A stretch of DNA of 64,000 nt from an uncultured Bacilli bacterium (GTDB taxonomy: Bacteria > Bacillota_I > Bacilli_A > RF39 > UBA660). Below the pieces are notes generated by a model, which saw only the letters and a program-made list of their open reading frames with translations, did not search any database and had not been told where the DNA came from. Of the stretch, positions 11,573-16,660 are shown piece by piece; position 1 is the first letter of the stretch, and each line of letters begins with the position of its first letter. A program made the position numbers and the translations under genes. Location: the NCBI GenBank assembly GCA_934086485.1, contig CAKOIF010000006.1, positions 3,932-67,931 on the forward strand. Reading direction: 5' to 3'.

Positions 11573-12711
11573 TTTTGCCCTCTTAAATATTTTCTTAAAT
11601 TGATTTTGCACGGACATATATAAGTGCATAGTCCACAGTCAATACAATTTTTACTTTTTTTACCAGTGTCCATAACATTTTTGGGGTTTACTTTTACTGG
11701 ACATATTTTATAGCACATACCACATAAATTGCATTTCTTTGCTTCTTCATTTTCATTTGGAATAATTAAAACAGCCTTAGTATTATTTGTAACTACACAT
11801 TTTTTATAATCAATTTCGTACCCTGTCATTAAGCCATTATAAATATATAAAGCATCTTTAATATCAATATTTAATTTTTGAAAAACATCACTTAATAAAG
11901 TCCCTATTTTTACATTAACAACATAACTTTTTTCTAAAAAGGGGCTTGCAATTGTAATAAACGTATTATCTTTAAAATCATTATAAACTAAACCATTATA
12001 AATACTTAACATATCTTTTGCACTTATTACTAAACTATTTTCAGATAATCCCATATTTTCTAGCAAAAAGAAATTTGTCCCTAAAAGATATTTATCTTCG
12101 ATTAAACTTAAATTTATATTTGTATAAGTTCCTATTTTACTTAAAAATAAATTAATATTTTCTGTATCGTTACTTTTAATTGCAATATATGAATTTTTAA
12201 TTTTAAATGTATCACTAAAAACATCAGTCATTTTTAAAATCTCATTAGCATAAAATTGTAAAATATAGGGATTATTTTCTATATATGGTTCATCCTCGAG
12301 ACCATTTACCACTATATTGGAGATTTTTCTTGTCCTAATAATATTTAAATAGTCATCAAAGTTAAGACTTGTAAGAGTGCTAATTATATCCTCAGTAGTT
12401 ACACTCTTTATTTTATTTTTAGTCTCTTTAGTATTTTCTTCATAATTATTTTCAATGACAATACACTCTTTTAATGCTTCATCACATATTAAATTAGTTG
12501 TACCAATAATTTTTCCTGATATACTACTTTTAATTTTTTTTAATTTATTTTCTAATATGGCTTCGTTTTTTAAAACTTTAGAGTTTTGCTTTTTAATAAG
12601 TTCATAGCCATCTTCAATTGGAACATAAATATGGTCTGGATCCATAAATGAAAATATTTTACTTGCAAATTTTATGTCATATATTCTATCTAATTTTATC
12701 AATTTTCTCAT
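11569..12711 (-). CDS. RnfC-like iron-sulfur protein (2x[4Fe-4S] ferredoxin-type C-terminus)
   Basis: NGLEDEPYIEN resembles the RnfC GxECEPY motif. C-terminal CNLCGMCYKICP and CIDCGLCTYICP cluster motifs. Confidence 0.6.
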   Translation of the reverse strand: MRKLIKLDRIYDIKFASKIFSFMDPDHIYVPIEDGYELIKKQNSKVLKNEAILENKLKKIKSSISGKIIGTTNLICDEALKECIVIENNYEENTKETKNKIKSVTTEDIISTLTSLNFDDYLNIIRTRKISNIVVNGLEDEPYIENNPYILQFYANEILKMTDVFSDTFKIKNSYIAIKSNDTENINLFLSKIGTYTNINLSLIEDKYLLGTNFFLLENMGLSENSLVISAKDMLSIYNGLVYNDFKDNTFITIASPFLEKSYVVNVKIGTLLSDVFQKLNIDIKDALYIYNGLMTGYEIDYKKCVVTNNTKAVLIIPNENEEAKKCNLCGMCYKICPVKVNPKNVMDTGKKSKNCIDCGLCTYICPCKINLRKYLRGQK

Positions 12712-12894
12712 ATAATTTCCTCATTTATAATGATATCATAATCTTATCTAACTTACAATTTTAAATTTTGTTGAAAATATTCATTTATTATTTCTAATAC
12801 TTACAATTATGTTTTTTCTATTTTTCTCTATATTTTTAATTACAAAATTTTCATTATAATCAAAATACTATTTCATAAAGTTATATCGCATAGT

Positions 12895-13220
12895 TTAAAT
12901 GTGTTTCATAGATAAAAGTTCTCTATAATGACTCCAGGTCAATTGTGTCCACATTGTGGACACTTTTTGATTACTAAACAAATTATAAAATTGTTTCATT
13001 CTAAAAAGTGTTCTACGATTATATTTTTTACCAACTTCATTAACTAGTTTTTCTGCATATTTACCAATAATATCATTACTGTACTCTTTTCCAGCCTCAC
13101 TTAAAAGTTTACCTACTTCCAAATTAGTAAGAATTTTATTTCTTTTTTTAGATTAATCTTTTATCTTTGCATAAATTTCATTTTTAATAATTTTTCTTTT
13201 ATTTCATCATAATAATTCAT
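12895..13220 (-). pseudogene. N-terminal remnant of a third DUF1016/YhcG-like gene
   Basis: ATG at 13220 reads MNYYDEIKEKLLK and then shifts frame. The 75-aa ORF 12895..13122 matches residues ~35-110 of the two intact neighbours and ends there. Confidence 0.75.
12945..12963. repeat. Intragenic hairpin, copy A (GTGTCCAC-att-GTGGACAC)
   Basis: Perfect 8-bp stem and 3-nt loop, GC-rich in an AT-rich gene. It sits at the same codons (just upstream of LTWSHY) as in copies B and C. Confidence 0.7.
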
Positions 13221-13235
13221 TTAATCATTTCCTTT

Positions 13236-14129
13236 CTAATTTGTAATTTTAAATTCTCTTGCAAATATTCTTTCATCAGAACAGTACTCAATTATAAATT
13301 GATTATTTTTTTTAGATATAATAATACCAATAGTTTTCTCATGGTATGGTTTCTTAATAACTTTATCAACATAATTCATATAAACCTCAATTTGCCCAAT
13401 ATGTTCTTTTTTTAGTTCAGTTACTTTTAATTCAATAACAACATAACAGTTATACTCTGTATTAAATAAAAGTAAATCTATGTAATTATAATTATTACCT
13501 ATTTTAATTTTGTATTCATTGCCTCCATAAAGAAAACCATTACCTAATTGTCTTAAAAAATTATCCAAATTATTAAGTATAGCTTGTTTTAATGCATACT
13601 CGGTTAATTTTTCTTGATTGTCTTCAAATTTAATCAAAATTGGATTTGGCACTAAATCAGGTAACTTTAATTCTTCATTTTTAATTAATTTATTCTTTGT
13701 TTCTTCGCCTAGTCTTTCATATTCTTTGAATTTTATAAGCATTCTTAAACTTCTTACGTCTAAATTTCTTTGTTCACATACTTTAATATAATAATTAATT
13801 TTATTGTTATCATTTAATGGTAATAATTCTACATAATGGCTCCAGGTCAAAAGTTGCGACAACGTCGCGACTTTTGTATCAAAAAAGATATTGTAGAATT
13901 GTTTCATTCTAAATAAGGTACTTCGATTGTATTTTTTACCTACTTCATTAACTAGTTTTTCTGCATATTGGCCAATTATATCATTACCATACTCTTTACC
14001 AGCTTCACTTAAAAGTTTACCTACTTCAAAATAAGTAATAACTTTATTTCTTTCTTTAGAATAATCCTTTACCTTTGCATAAATCTCATTTTTTAATAAT
14101 TTTTCTTTTATTTCATCATAATAATTCAT
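13236..14129 (-). CDS. DUF1016 / YhcG-like PD-(D/E)XK nuclease family protein, copy B
   Basis: N-terminal YhcG-type region (GKEYGNDIIGQYAEKLVNEVGKKYNRSTLFRMKQFY...LTWSHY). C-terminal nuclease core IDLLLFN...VVIELKV. Confidence 0.8.
   Translation of the reverse strand: MNYYDEIKEKLLKNEIYAKVKDYSKERNKVITYFEVGKLLSEAGKEYGNDIIGQYAEKLVNEVGKKYNRSTLFRMKQFYNIFFDTKVATLSQLLTWSHYVELLPLNDNNKINYYIKVCEQRNLDVRSLRMLIKFKEYERLGEETKNKLIKNEELKLPDLVPNPILIKFEDNQEKLTEYALKQAILNNLDNFLRQLGNGFLYGGNEYKIKIGNNYNYIDLLLFNTEYNCYVVIELKVTELKKEHIGQIEVYMNYVDKVIKKPYHEKTIGIIISKKNNQFIIEYCSDERIFAREFKITN
13853..13871. repeat. Intragenic hairpin, copy B (GTTGCGAC-aac-GTCGCGAC)
   Basis: 8-bp stem with one T:G pair on the plus strand and a 3-nt loop. 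The flanking CAAAA/TTTTG can extend the stem. Confidence 0.7.
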
Positions 14130-14144
14130 TTAATCATTTCCTTT

Positions 14145-15041
14145 CTAATTTGTTAATTTAAATTCTCTTGCAAATATTCTTTCATCAGAGCAGTACTCAA
14201 TTATAAATTGATTATTTTTTTTAGATATGATAATACCAATAGATTTATCATCAGTTAAGTCTTTAACATTACTATCAATATAGTTCATATAAACCTGTAT
14301 TTGACCTATATGTTCTTTTTTAAGTTCGGTTACTTTGAGTTCTATAACTACATAACATTTATATTTTACATTATATAAAAGTAAGTCTATATAATTATAA
14401 TTATTACCTATTTTAATTTTGTATTCATTACCAATATAACTAAAGCCATTACCAAACTGTTTTAAAAAATTATCCAAATTATTAAGTATAGCTTGTTTTA
14501 ATGCATACTCGGTTAATTTTTCTTGATTGTCTTCAAATTTAATCAAAATTGGATTTGGCACTAAATCAGGTAACTTTAATTCTTCATTTTTAATTAATTT
14601 ATTCTTTGTTTCTTTGCCTAGTCTTTCATATTCTTTGGATTTTATTTTATTTCTTAAATCATTTCTACTTAAACACTGCTCTTCACAAACCTTAATATAA
14701 TAATTAATTTCATTTATGTCTTTTAATGGTAAAAGCTCTATGTAATGACTCCAAGTCAATTGTTGCGCCAGTGGCGCGACTTTTTCATCAGAAAAAATAT
14801 TGTAGAATTGTTTCATTCTAAATAATGTACTTCGATTATATTTTTTCCCTACTTCATTAACTAATTTTTCGGCATAACTACTAATTATATTATTACCATA
14901 CTCTTTACCAGCTTCACTTAAAAGTTTACCTACTTCAAAATAAGTAAGAACTTTATTTCTTTCTTTAGAATAATCTTTTACCTTTGCATAGATTTCATTT
15001 TTTAATAATTTTTCTTTAATTTCATCATAATAATTTACCAC
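14145..15041 (-). CDS. DUF1016 / YhcG-like PD-(D/E)XK nuclease family protein, copy C
   Basis: Paralog of 13236..14129. The likely GTG start at 15041 lies 6 nt after a GGAGG; the track start at 15128 adds a hydrophobic artefactual extension. Confidence 0.8.
   Translation of the reverse strand: MVNYYDEIKEKLLKNEIYAKVKDYSKERNKVLTYFEVGKLLSEAGKEYGNNIISSYAEKLVNEVGKKYNRSTLFRMKQFYNIFSDEKVAPLAQQLTWSHYIELLPLKDINEINYYIKVCEEQCLSRNDLRNKIKSKEYERLGKETKNKLIKNEELKLPDLVPNPILIKFEDNQEKLTEYALKQAILNNLDNFLKQFGNGFSYIGNEYKIKIGNNYNYIDLLLYNVKYKCYVVIELKVTELKKEHIGQIQVYMNYIDSNVKDLTDDKSIGIIISKKNNQFIIEYCSDERIFAREFKLTN
14762..14780. repeat. Intragenic hairpin, copy C (GTTGCGCC-agt-GGCGCGAC)
   Basis: 8-bp stem with one T:G pair on the plus strand and a 3-nt loop, at the same codon position as copies A and B. 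Confidence 0.7.
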
Positions 15042-15244
15042 TTTGTTCCTCCATTTCTTTAGTTTTTGAATTTTTACTGCAAAATAAAAAGCAGAAAAAC
15101 ATACCATTTTCCTTAAGAAAAGGTACATCTTTCCGCTTCGTATATATTTATTACCCCTATTTAAATATATGTAATCGTCTAATAATAATTGCTTGGTTTA
15201 TAAGAGGTCTACCTTGCATATACATAATATCAAAAATAATTTTA

Positions 15245-16660
15245 TTAATCAAGTTTTTTATGAAGTAATTCTTTTGTAATAATTGGGTTAGCTTTACCTC
15301 TAGTTTCTTTCATAACTTGACCAACAAAGAAATCAAAAATATTAGTTCTACCATTTTTATACTCGTTAATTTCTTTTTCGTGTGAAGATAAAATTCTATC
15401 AATTATACTTTCAATTAAATCTTCATCACTAACCTGTGCATCTTCTTTAGAAATAAAGTTTTTAGGTTCTTTTTCTTCCTCTAAAGATTTATAGAAAACC
15501 TCTTTAACTTGTTTTGATGATAAGACTCCACTTTCTTTTGCATCATTAATTTGTTTTAAAAATTCTGGTTTTAAATAAAAATCATTTATATTAATATCTT
15601 TTTCATTTATATATGAAGTAATAATTCCGTTAATATAATTTGCAGCCTCAATTGGTTTAATTCCTACTTCAACACATTTTTCAAAATAGTTTGCAATATT
15701 AATATCTTTAATTAAAATATTAGCATTATATTCATCAAGTCCTAAATTACTCATATAATTATCTTTTCTAGCATCTGCTAAAACTGGAATAGTTTTTCTA
15801 ATATTTTCTACAAATTCATCAGTTATTTCATAAGGTGGAATATTAGGTTCTACAAAATATTTATAGTCAATTGCATCAGCTTTACTACGCATATGGACTG
15901 TTGTACCTGTAGATTCATCAAATCTACGAGTTTCTTGATATAATGGTTCATTATTTTGAAGTGCCTCAAGTTGTCTTTTTTCTTCGTATAAAATAGCTAG
16001 TTTTACATTTGCTAAACTATTTACATTTTTTATTTCAACTTTTGGAGTAATATAATTTCCATTATCATCCATAAGATTTACGTTAACATCACATCTTATT
16101 TGGCCTTTTTTAGTATCTGCCTCGGAGATATCCGTATATTTATAAATTCTACACATTGTTTCTAAAAAAGCTATTGCTTCATCAGCTGAATGCATACAAG
16201 GTGCAGTAACTGTTTCAAGAAGTGGCACACCAGCACGATTATAATCAATAAGTGAAAAAGTCTGCAAGTGGTCAAGTGCCGCAGCATCTTCCTCTAAATG
16301 GATATCTAATATTTCTACATTAAATTTAGTGCCATTAAGTGATACCTCTAAATTACCATTAATACCTACAGGTCTTGTATTTTGAGTAATTTGATAACCT
16401 TTTGGAAGATCAGGATAATAGTAATTTTTTCTATCAAAAATCATATATTTTGCAACATCACATTTTAATATTAAAGCCATTTCAACTGCTTTTTTAACGC
16501 ATTCTTCATTTAAAGAGGGCATAAATCCTGGAAATGCTAAATCAATTTCATTAATATTTACATTAGCCATTTTATTATATACATTTGAAGATGGTGAAAA
16601 TACTTTTGTAGTACTTTTCATTTCAGCATGCATTTCAAGGCCAATAACTAACTTAGTCAT
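15245..16660 (-). CDS. gatB: Asp/Glu-tRNA amidotransferase subunit B
   Basis: 471 aa with GLEMHAEM... typical of the GatB N-terminus and a YqeY-like tail. Lies in gatC-gatA-gatB order. Confidence 0.95.
   Translation of the reverse strand: MTKLVIGLEMHAEMKSTTKVFSPSSNVYNKMANVNINEIDLAFPGFMPSLNEECVKKAVEMALILKCDVAKYMIFDRKNYYYPDLPKGYQITQNTRPVGINGNLEVSLNGTKFNVEILDIHLEEDAAALDHLQTFSLIDYNRAGVPLLETVTAPCMHSADEAIAFLETMCRIYKYTDISEADTKKGQIRCDVNVNLMDDNGNYITPKVEIKNVNSLANVKLAILYEEKRQLEALQNNEPLYQETRRFDESTGTTVHMRSKADAIDYKYFVEPNIPPYEITDEFVENIRKTIPVLADARKDNYMSNLGLDEYNANILIKDINIANYFEKCVEVGIKPIEAANYINGIITSYINEKDININDFYLKPEFLKQINDAKESGVLSSKQVKEVFYKSLEEEKEPKNFISKEDAQVSDEDLIESIIDRILSSHEKEINEYKNGRTNIFDFFVGQVMKETRGKANPIITKELLHKKLD

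Follow-up and report, generated by a model that had tools for sequence, protein, structure and literature searches.

An odd palindrome at a fixed codon position of DUF1016/YhcG genes, a candidate site for the ParB-like helix of the encoded proteins

We analysed a stretch of 64,000 nucleotides (nt), hereafter the window, from an uncultured Bacilli bacterium (lineage RF39; UBA660; assembly GCA_934086485.1, contig CAKOIF010000006.1, positions 3,932 to 67,931). Two intact genes of the DUF1016/YhcG nuclease family and the truncated remnant of a third lie there in tandem, and each carries a palindrome rich in G and C (GC-rich) at the same codons. The genes, the palindromes and the predicted recognition helices are listed below, where x2 designates the residue five before the Met of the helix motif M-R-x-F-Y, which in copy C is Ser74, about 17 codons upstream of the first codon of the palindrome.

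14145..15050, minus strand: gene copy C, 301 amino acids, DUF1016_N domain (predicted ParB-like helix-turn-helix) and YhcG_C domain (PD-(D/E)XK nuclease); matches PDC-S02
13236..14129, minus strand: gene copy B, 297 amino acids, 85% identity to C, 15 nt downstream of C on the same strand
about 12883..13200, minus strand: remnant copy A, a partial N-terminal domain with an in-frame stop, without the nuclease domain
14762..14780: palindrome of copy C, sense strand GTCGCGCCAcTGGCGCAAC, encoding VAPLAQ plus one base, its centre being base 1 of the Leu codon
13853..13871: palindrome of copy B, sense strand GTCGCGACGtTGTCGCAAC, encoding VATLSQ, with an outward A-T extension (CAAAAGTTGCGAC/GTCGCGACTTTTG)
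12945..12963: palindrome of remnant A, GTGTCCACAaTGTGGACAC, encoding VSTMWT, with perfect arms of 9 base pairs (bp) and one central base
14796..14834, minus strand: predicted recognition helix of copy C, RSTLFRMKQFYNI, x2 = Ser74 at 14829-14831
13887..13925, minus strand: predicted recognition helix of copy B, RSTLFRMKQFYNI, x2 = Ser at 13920-13922
12979..13017, minus strand: predicted recognition helix of remnant A, RRTLFRMKQFYNL, x2 = Arg at 13012-13014

Family membership was defined by Pfam PF17761 and PF06250, COG4804 and PADLOC PDC-S02. The DUF1016_N domain scores 83 bits in copy B, 95 in copy C and 57 in remnant A (Pfam cut-off 32.8), and YhcG_C scores 122 bits in B and 128 in C, the translations of which contain YIDLLL and VVIELK (D...E-x-K motif). 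PDC-S02, a candidate defence family of PADLOC, was matched at E values of 1e-60 to 1e-66.

A preliminary description of this DNA, made from its letters, had reported three hairpins with 8-bp stems and 3-nt loops. They are found exactly where it had placed them: GTGTCCAC att GTGGACAC at 12945-12963 (copy A, perfect stem), GTTGCGAC aac GTCGCGAC at 13853-13871 (copy B) and GTTGCGCC agt GGCGCGAC at 14762-14780 (copy C), the latter two with a single T:G pair each. As it had also claimed, pairs 3, 4, 6 and 7 vary among the copies, the peptides VSTMWT (A), VATLSQ (B) and VAPLAQ (C) are encoded immediately upstream of LTWSHY, and the truncated remnant A retains a perfect stem. The stems stand, with one correction to the 3-nt loop: the outer loop bases pair too in copies A (ACAaTGT) and C (CCAcTGG), and the element is better described as an odd palindrome with a single central base, which in copy C lies six codons before the Trp of LTWSHY.

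The element is indeed written in very atypical codons, GCG making up 3%, TCG 0%, ACG 3% and GTC 4% of their codon families in four neighbouring genes. In the whole 1.34-Mb genome (25.7% GC), a search for stems of 8 bp with 4 or more G/C in each arm gives 161 matches, and about 30 distinct sites are left at 5 or more G/C per arm. Six of these strong sites share one DUF1016 codon position, three in the window and three on another contig (C8), so that a chance origin is excluded. A scattered restriction, methylation or uptake motif was considered and rejected, the stems being confined here to DUF1016 sequences and the other GC-rich hairpins being unrelated to them.

Contig C8 carries a fourth intact DUF1016 gene, copy D, which at this place encodes EK-GARFGH-QLSWSHY with the palindrome GGTGCCCgatttGGGCACC. 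Upstream of it (C8:12470-13770; locus L026:970-2355) lie an older N-terminal fragment, the palindrome of which is decayed and does not belong to the six, and two relic units of 77 nt, about 100 and 180 nt upstream of D. Each relic unit has its own distinct palindrome within conserved flanks (TTGAAAAA...AATTATC); the outer pairs 5-9, (G/A)GTG(C/T), are kept, and these are the pairs that covary with the protein helix (see below), while the inner four vary. The array is shared with sister species, whose palindromes differ by compensated changes; in a relic unit the differing pairs are fully compensated and the flanks nearly constant. All four gene copies of this genome and the relic units fit the position of the palindrome in the family.

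That position was established on 157 distinct sites, taken from the genus of the window, its phylum, and E. coli-like homologues across many bacterial and archaeal lineages. A perfect stem of at least 8 bp was present in 60% of the 157 target segments of 90 nt, versus 2.4% of 1233 control segments from the same genes. In 85 sites the centre falls on one fixed base, namely base 1 of the codon situated six codons before the Trp of LxWSH, and most sites (92 of 131) are odd palindromes, perfect up to the single central base. The consensus TTCCAGACAnTGTCTGGAA (F-Q-T-L/V-S-G-K) is encountered from Woesearchaeota to Bacteroidota, Bacilli and cyanobacteria, and persists even in genomes of 26-30% GC. 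In yhcG of E. coli K-12, the homologous place is occupied by AAAGATTTGGCAGAC gct GTCTGCCAAATCTTT, with perfect 15-bp arms, its version of the consensus core being GGCAGACgctGTCTGCC. The proposal of a selected structure would have been refuted by homologues that have nothing pairable here, or by a motif scattered over the genome; neither is the case, the palindrome being present in homologues from other genomes and not being spread genome-wide. We found no published description of it in the literature searched under DUF1016 and YhcG. DUF1016 genes have been reported to be enriched next to phase-variable restriction-modification genes (PMC9881135).

Two observations on particular genes can be added. 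Three tandem palindrome units lie within E. coli K-12 yhcG (L001:13170-13260). In some relatives of the same class (genomes G165 and G338; locus L127), TGA is read as sense, with 3 in-frame TGA in the DUF1016 genes, and both the palindrome and a free downstream copy are present.

To determine on which nucleic acid the symmetry is maintained, pairing statistics were collected on the 116 sites for which a protein of the window family (alignment A1), and not E. coli YhcG, was the best-matching query, the centre being fixed by the protein alignment alone. Pairs 1-9 are Watson-Crick in 78-91% of these sites, versus 19-36% at control centres. Synonymous third positions are palindromic in 81-93% of sites, versus 19-39% expected from the codon usage of each gene. 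Together with the compensated arm changes found even in non-coding relics, this bears out the core of the earlier inference: what is acted upon is the nucleic acid, not the peptide. The mismatches comprised 37 of the G:U type on the sense strand, 47 of the A:C type (G:U on the antisense strand) and 58 others. Even the position adjoining the centre, where a hairpin allows no pairing, is palindromic in 92 of 113 sites versus 44 expected. Since mismatches have no strand bias and symmetry extends to the base next to the centre, duplex DNA rather than RNA is indicated. We conclude that the element lives on double-stranded DNA, or that its upkeep is by a strand-symmetric process. It also serves as a caution: a hairpin within a gene can show compensatory changes without being an RNA structure.

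The antisense RNA element put forward in the preliminary description is not supported. No covariance model of Rfam 15 matched either strand of 12500-15400 at E values up to 1. The plus-strand (antisense) hairpins of A and C (12945-12973 and 14762-14790) do fit a simple intrinsic-terminator pattern, 2 versus 0.2 in shuffled sequences; their T-run derives from a Lys codon and the codons just before the palindrome. Over the family, an antisense T-tail accompanies the palindrome at 56 of 102 loci below 45% GC, and at 7 of 54 loci at 45% GC or above; E. coli has no such tail. Lys codons of AT-rich genomes produce the T-tail as a by-product, and an antisense terminator or mRNA hairpin was rejected as a general explanation: wobble is not favoured, Rfam gives no match and the tail is not conserved. 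A programmed frameshift at the A-run before the hairpin was rejected as well, the run not being in the X XXY YYZ frame and no spacer preceding the stem.

We then considered what could read such a site. Copy C was modelled with AlphaFold2 (pLDDT 88.8). Its C-terminal domain is similar in fold to NucS/EndoMS (Z 12.6), and a Foldseek search with the whole protein picked up only this nuclease domain. The N-terminal domain, labelled "unknown, helical" in the one study of the DUF1016/YhcG family that we found (PMC1189080), was modelled separately (pLDDT 90.1). Its profile found B. subtilis Spo0J as top match among sequences of solved structures, and Pfam HTH_ParB matches 4 of 16 members (best E 3e-4). 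The model aligned with Spo0J (Z 8.8), a ParB-parS complex (Z 8.7) and a KorB-operator complex (Z 6.9), and nearly all the top ranks in Foldseek were ParB or Noc. Finally, hhalign against an alignment of ParB helix-turn-helix sequences from this genome and relatives gave a probability of 88.9% (E 2.4e-6, 81 columns), with RSTLFRMKQFY placed as recognition helix and LTWSHY opposite ParB LSMGH. With four methods in agreement, the N-terminal domain can be regarded as a remote homologue of the ParB/KorB-type helix-turn-helix, at moderate strength. The ParB N-terminal CTPase domain was not detected, Pfam giving DUF1016_N and YhcG_C only and hhalign spanning only the helix-turn-helix part. Judged from these comparisons, the protein may act as a ParB-type site reader, yet it is no ParB. 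In the model of copy C, the palindrome encodes a predicted short helix (residues 91-97) located between the 13-residue helix (73-85) and the WSHY helix (100-106).

If the helix reads the palindrome, the two should vary together. For this analysis 60 loci from two further phyla were added, and the helix was aligned for 173 sites with a usable palindrome. When x2 is Arg, pair 7 is G on both arms in 50 of 56 sites; when x2 is Ser (59 sites), pair 7 is C in 40, T in 6 and G in 1. Mutual information is highest between x2 and pair 7, between x2+3 and pairs 8-9, and between x2+4 and pairs 5-6, and stays flat for helix columns that have the same entropy. Pair 8 is associated with x2+3, being T when Tyr, Phe, Trp or Met stands there and G when Arg does. 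At pair 5, C is associated with Arg at x2+4, and A with Asn at x2+1. This is the pattern of a helix lying in the major groove, where neighbouring base pairs are faced by residues i, i+1, i+3 and i+4 and the combinations are Arg-G, Asn-A and aromatic-T. The window itself fits: in remnant A, x2 is Arg and pair 7 is G; in B and C, x2 is Ser, and pair 7 has C in one half-site and T in the other. This conserved difference between half-sites, both bases of which go with Ser, is the T:G of copies B and C.

Common ancestry was controlled for by counting phylogenetically independent pairs on a protein tree from which helix and palindrome residues had been masked. For x2 = Arg and pair 7 = G, about 18 of 23 such pairs switch together (18.3 in the same direction and 0.8 in the opposite one, median p about 4e-5). 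The corresponding numbers were 15.9 and 0 for aromatic or Met at x2+3 with T at pair 8 (median p about 3e-5), 8.5 and 0.4 for Arg at x2+3 with G at pair 8 (about 0.008), and 8.1 and 0.4 for Arg at x2+4 with C at pair 5 (about 0.016). Seven control combinations of helix and base pair in the same block were not significant, which makes linked blocks an unlikely cause of the covariation. Codon choice follows the same rule. Where x2 is Arg, the left-arm codon has a final G whichever of nine amino acids it encodes, and all 24 Val codons are GTG; where x2 is Ser or Ala, 12 of 14 Val codons are GTC. On the right arm the codon, for Ala, Thr, Ser or Pro, always has C in the middle. The link between helix and site is at the nucleotide level.

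The palindrome also exists outside its codon position. A search of all the loci for 16-base matches with at most 2 mismatches yielded 19 extra copies, versus about 0.1 expected. Some are tandem duplicates inside E. coli-type genes, 36-51 nt apart and often differing only at the centre. Others are intergenic, are without flank homology and match the variant of their own gene, and this in unrelated lineages. The distances of the free copies to the gene are as follows.

Upstream of the start codon: 24 and 52 nt (L104), 44 nt (L146), 105 nt (L008 and L024), 136 nt (L004)
Downstream of the stop codon: 27 nt (E. coli K-12; E. whittamii), 109 nt (L004), 195 nt (L127), 217 nt (L198)

In E. coli K-12 MG1655, the free copy is a 25-nt perfect palindrome with the family core, ATTCTGCAGACAgTGTCTGCAGAAT (L001:13971-13995, about 3368970-3368994), which begins 16 nt past the yhcG stop (centre at 27 nt), between the convergent genes yhcG and nanQ. 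At L004 (1260-1400 and 2560-2700), the DUF1016 gene stands between two direct repeats of about 120 nt, in a cassette-like layout, and each repeat holds, besides a second hairpin, the unusual palindrome of that gene (TTTGCAAGaagtcCTTGCAAA) without any change. As to the Arg-G rule, 3 free copies fit and 2 do not, a mixed result on too few copies.

How the symmetry is kept was examined on 44 disjoint pairs of close relatives. The central base had changed 13 times, 10 of them to its complement, versus 28% of the substitutions in the flanks (p = 3.7e-4); the changes go mostly to the complement although C to T is synonymous there. Between E. coli and Pseudocitrobacter, the loop gct has become agc, its reverse complement, the 14-bp arms on either side being unchanged. 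L008 and L024, from two genomes that are 98% identical in this region, differ by the central base both in the gene and in the upstream free copy (1306-1330 and 1689-1715), in opposite senses (g/c versus c/g), and the DNA between the two sites is not inverted. Such centre flips, like the compensated changes of the relic units, are signatures of palindrome inversion or of arm-to-arm templated repair; a symmetric reader accepting C:G either way could also yield the centre pattern. The core does not evolve faster overall (14% change in the core, 17% in the flanks). It rather behaves in two ways: the consensus class is ultra-conserved, with 0 changes in TTCCAGACAnTGTCTGGAA where flanks have 47-61 per 240 nt, and multi-copy lineages show jumps that take in three neighbouring pairs at once. 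Those of the D subfamily are local, involve three compensated pairs and resemble an exchange among paralogous units.

On balance we lean towards the following reading, which we consider somewhat more probable than not and which sequence comparison suggests: the palindrome would be the protein's own site, read by its ParB-like helix in the gene and in adjacent copies, most plausibly for self-control, templated repair keeping it symmetric. The hairpin of the window would then be the local version of a dyad-symmetric DNA site at a fixed place in DUF1016/YhcG genes. Its predicted reader is a dimer of the encoded protein, bound to ordinary double-stranded DNA, with the N-terminal ParB/KorB-type helix-turn-helix as putative reading head and x2, x2+1, x2+3 and x2+4 facing pairs 5 to 8 of each half-site. 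Each paralogue would hold its own address within its gene. The most likely consequence would be a self-control independent of the promoter, the bound site acting as a roadblock or an operator, in either case together with the matching free copies at gene starts and stops. Perfect symmetry, including at positions that the helix seems not to read, would probably be kept by arm-to-arm templated repair or by inversion. Of the four options named in the preliminary description, a protein-binding site is thus the one best supported, by the predicted helix-turn-helix and the covariation, and the antisense RNA lost its ground; a cruciform or a recombination role may still contribute.

Several observations weigh against this reading. 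The Arg-G rule has exceptions in 6 of 56 sites, and the free copy of L036 has C at pair 7 despite x2 = Arg. For a domain made of helices, Z scores below 9 and Foldseek E values of 0.23 or more are moderate. In K-12 YhcG, Arg and Thr replace Trp and His of the WSH motif, and the perfect 15-bp arms persist nonetheless. Symmetry is also found at the inner pairs 1-4 and next to the centre; since the inner pairs of the D subfamily vary freely, they seem unread there, and their symmetry needs a second process. Last, residues of the helix encoded by the palindrome depend on the covarying base pairs too, so that the covariation may be internal to the protein. We consider this less likely, because the covarying residues are at the N-terminal end of the 13-residue helix, with the 7-residue palindrome helix past its C-terminal end, and because the association follows the third letters of codons and not amino-acid classes.

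This last objection is part of a broader alternative, in which the palindrome has no function and perpetuates itself by template switching or arm-to-arm conversion, its in-frame coding preventing deletion and the covariation reflecting packing with the helix it encodes. The upkeep data speak for it (the bias of centre changes towards the complement, the gct to agc flip, the fully compensated pairs in non-coding relics of sister species), as do the symmetry next to the centre, needed by neither a hairpin nor a reading helix, and the perfect arms of K-12 in spite of its decayed WSH. It accounts poorly for a covariation that is position-specific, follows an Arg-G and aromatic-T logic with flat controls, and tracks third letters across many amino acids; the predicted secondary structure also makes contact between the N-terminal end of the 13-residue helix and the 7-residue helix improbable. 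Nor does it predict an unchanging consensus within changing flanks, or matching copies without flank homology at gene borders. We hold it to be unlikely, if still worth keeping in mind. Folded DNA, a single-stranded hairpin or an extruded cruciform, might instead be the substrate of the protein's own NucS-like nuclease or of recombination, and so drive duplication, gene conversion and mobility. The likeness of the C-terminal domain to NucS/EndoMS would suit it, and so would the tandem arrays, truncated copies and 77-nt relic units that cluster around palindromes, the tandem duplicates of palindrome units inside E. coli-type genes, the palindrome-bearing direct repeats that bracket the gene of L004, and the presence of GC-rich stems in a 26% GC genome. 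However, pairing is kept next to the centre, where a hairpin cannot pair; the sequence, not pairing alone, is conserved across phyla; and the window arms of 6-9 bp are short for cruciform extrusion. The idea that breakpoints of the tandem copies map to the hairpin finds no support, remnant A running about 60 nt beyond its palindrome. We find this explanation improbable. As for an RNA structure, be it an mRNA hairpin controlling translation or decay or an intrinsic terminator of antisense transcripts, it draws on the terminator-like hairpins of A and C and on the T-tails of AT-rich loci; the balance of G:U types between strands, the complementarity of the loop-flanking bases, the rarity of T-tails at higher GC, the lack of any Rfam match and the symmetry kept in untranscribed-looking intergenic copies all point the other way, and we give it hardly any credit.

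A bolder variant of self-recognition deserves mention, although we regard it as speculative and rather doubtful: YhcG proteins would be self-addressed site-specific nucleases, which read their own palindrome and the neighbouring relics and cut there under some condition, the breaks driving gene conversion among tandem copies and silent relics. If true, it would account for the hypervariable yet symmetric inner cores, the fragment arrays, and the divergence of paralogues into protein-site pairs that do not cross-react. Such a system would resemble HO/MAT switching or homing, within a candidate phage-defence family.

Comparison with known systems helps to place the reading in which the palindrome is the protein's own site. 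ParB/Spo0J-parS, Noc-NBS and KorB-OB share with it a remotely homologous DNA-binding fold and a contiguous palindrome of 13-25 bp, and one B. subtilis parS is said to have been located by Lin and Grossman, in 1998, inside the spo0J coding sequence. KorB, a ParB-family protein, reads a 13-bp palindrome that is odd as well, with a central G/C (PMC13768133). Unlike these systems, DUF1016/YhcG has no N-terminal CTPase domain and no ParA partner, its helix-turn-helix is fused to a PD-(D/E)XK nuclease, and its candidate site is at one codon position fixed throughout the family, right behind the predicted reading helix, where it dictates the peptide. Intragenic palindromic operators combined with sites near the promoter are known from lac O2 inside lacZ and gal OI inside galE, and by analogy the promoter-side and in-gene DUF1016 sites recall the operator sets lac O1/O2 and gal OE/OI; however, the lac and gal operators sit in a regulated target gene and not in the gene of the regulator, and have no family-wide codon position. 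Concerted arm changes and complement flips, the two marks of a quasi-palindrome hotspot of template switching or inversion, are both found here: as in the Ripley model and in the hairpin-loop flips of chloroplasts, both arms change together and the loop or centre flips to its complement. Those hotspots arise at arbitrary sites, whereas the DUF1016 palindrome is at a homologous position in bacteria and archaea and covaries with a protein helix. With integron attC sites and REP/REPIN elements it has in common a variable sequence with conserved symmetry and loose copies near genes. It differs from them by a symmetry that continues across the centre and lacks the extrahelical bases usual in attC, by a conserved core consensus and by its place in frame inside a gene. 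No integrase or RAYT gene was noted by DUF1016 genes, no neighbourhood survey having been made.

DUF1016/YhcG is a very widespread nuclease family, present in bacteria, archaea and phages, with a member in E. coli K-12 and a place among candidate defence families as PDC-S02. To our knowledge, neither its function nor its DNA target is known. Were the palindrome its own site, the family would gain a target sequence and a testable code (Arg-G at pair 7, aromatic-T at pair 8, Asn-A or Arg-C at pair 5). It would also show clearly how a DNA site can override the choice of codons, and even the amino-acid sequence, at one position that is constant throughout a gene family, and would offer a natural set of diverged protein-site pairs, usable as orthogonal parts.

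Two short hairpin arrays lie elsewhere in the genome, outside the window. At the end of contig C11 (13-165), the hairpin TCAGTGCA-nTTT-TGCACTGA occurs four times with a spacing of 42-45 nt, and on contig C7 (17898-18090) the hairpin CCCTCTGC-loop-GCAGTGGG occurs three times, about 85 nt apart. Both may be repeat arrays of some kind.

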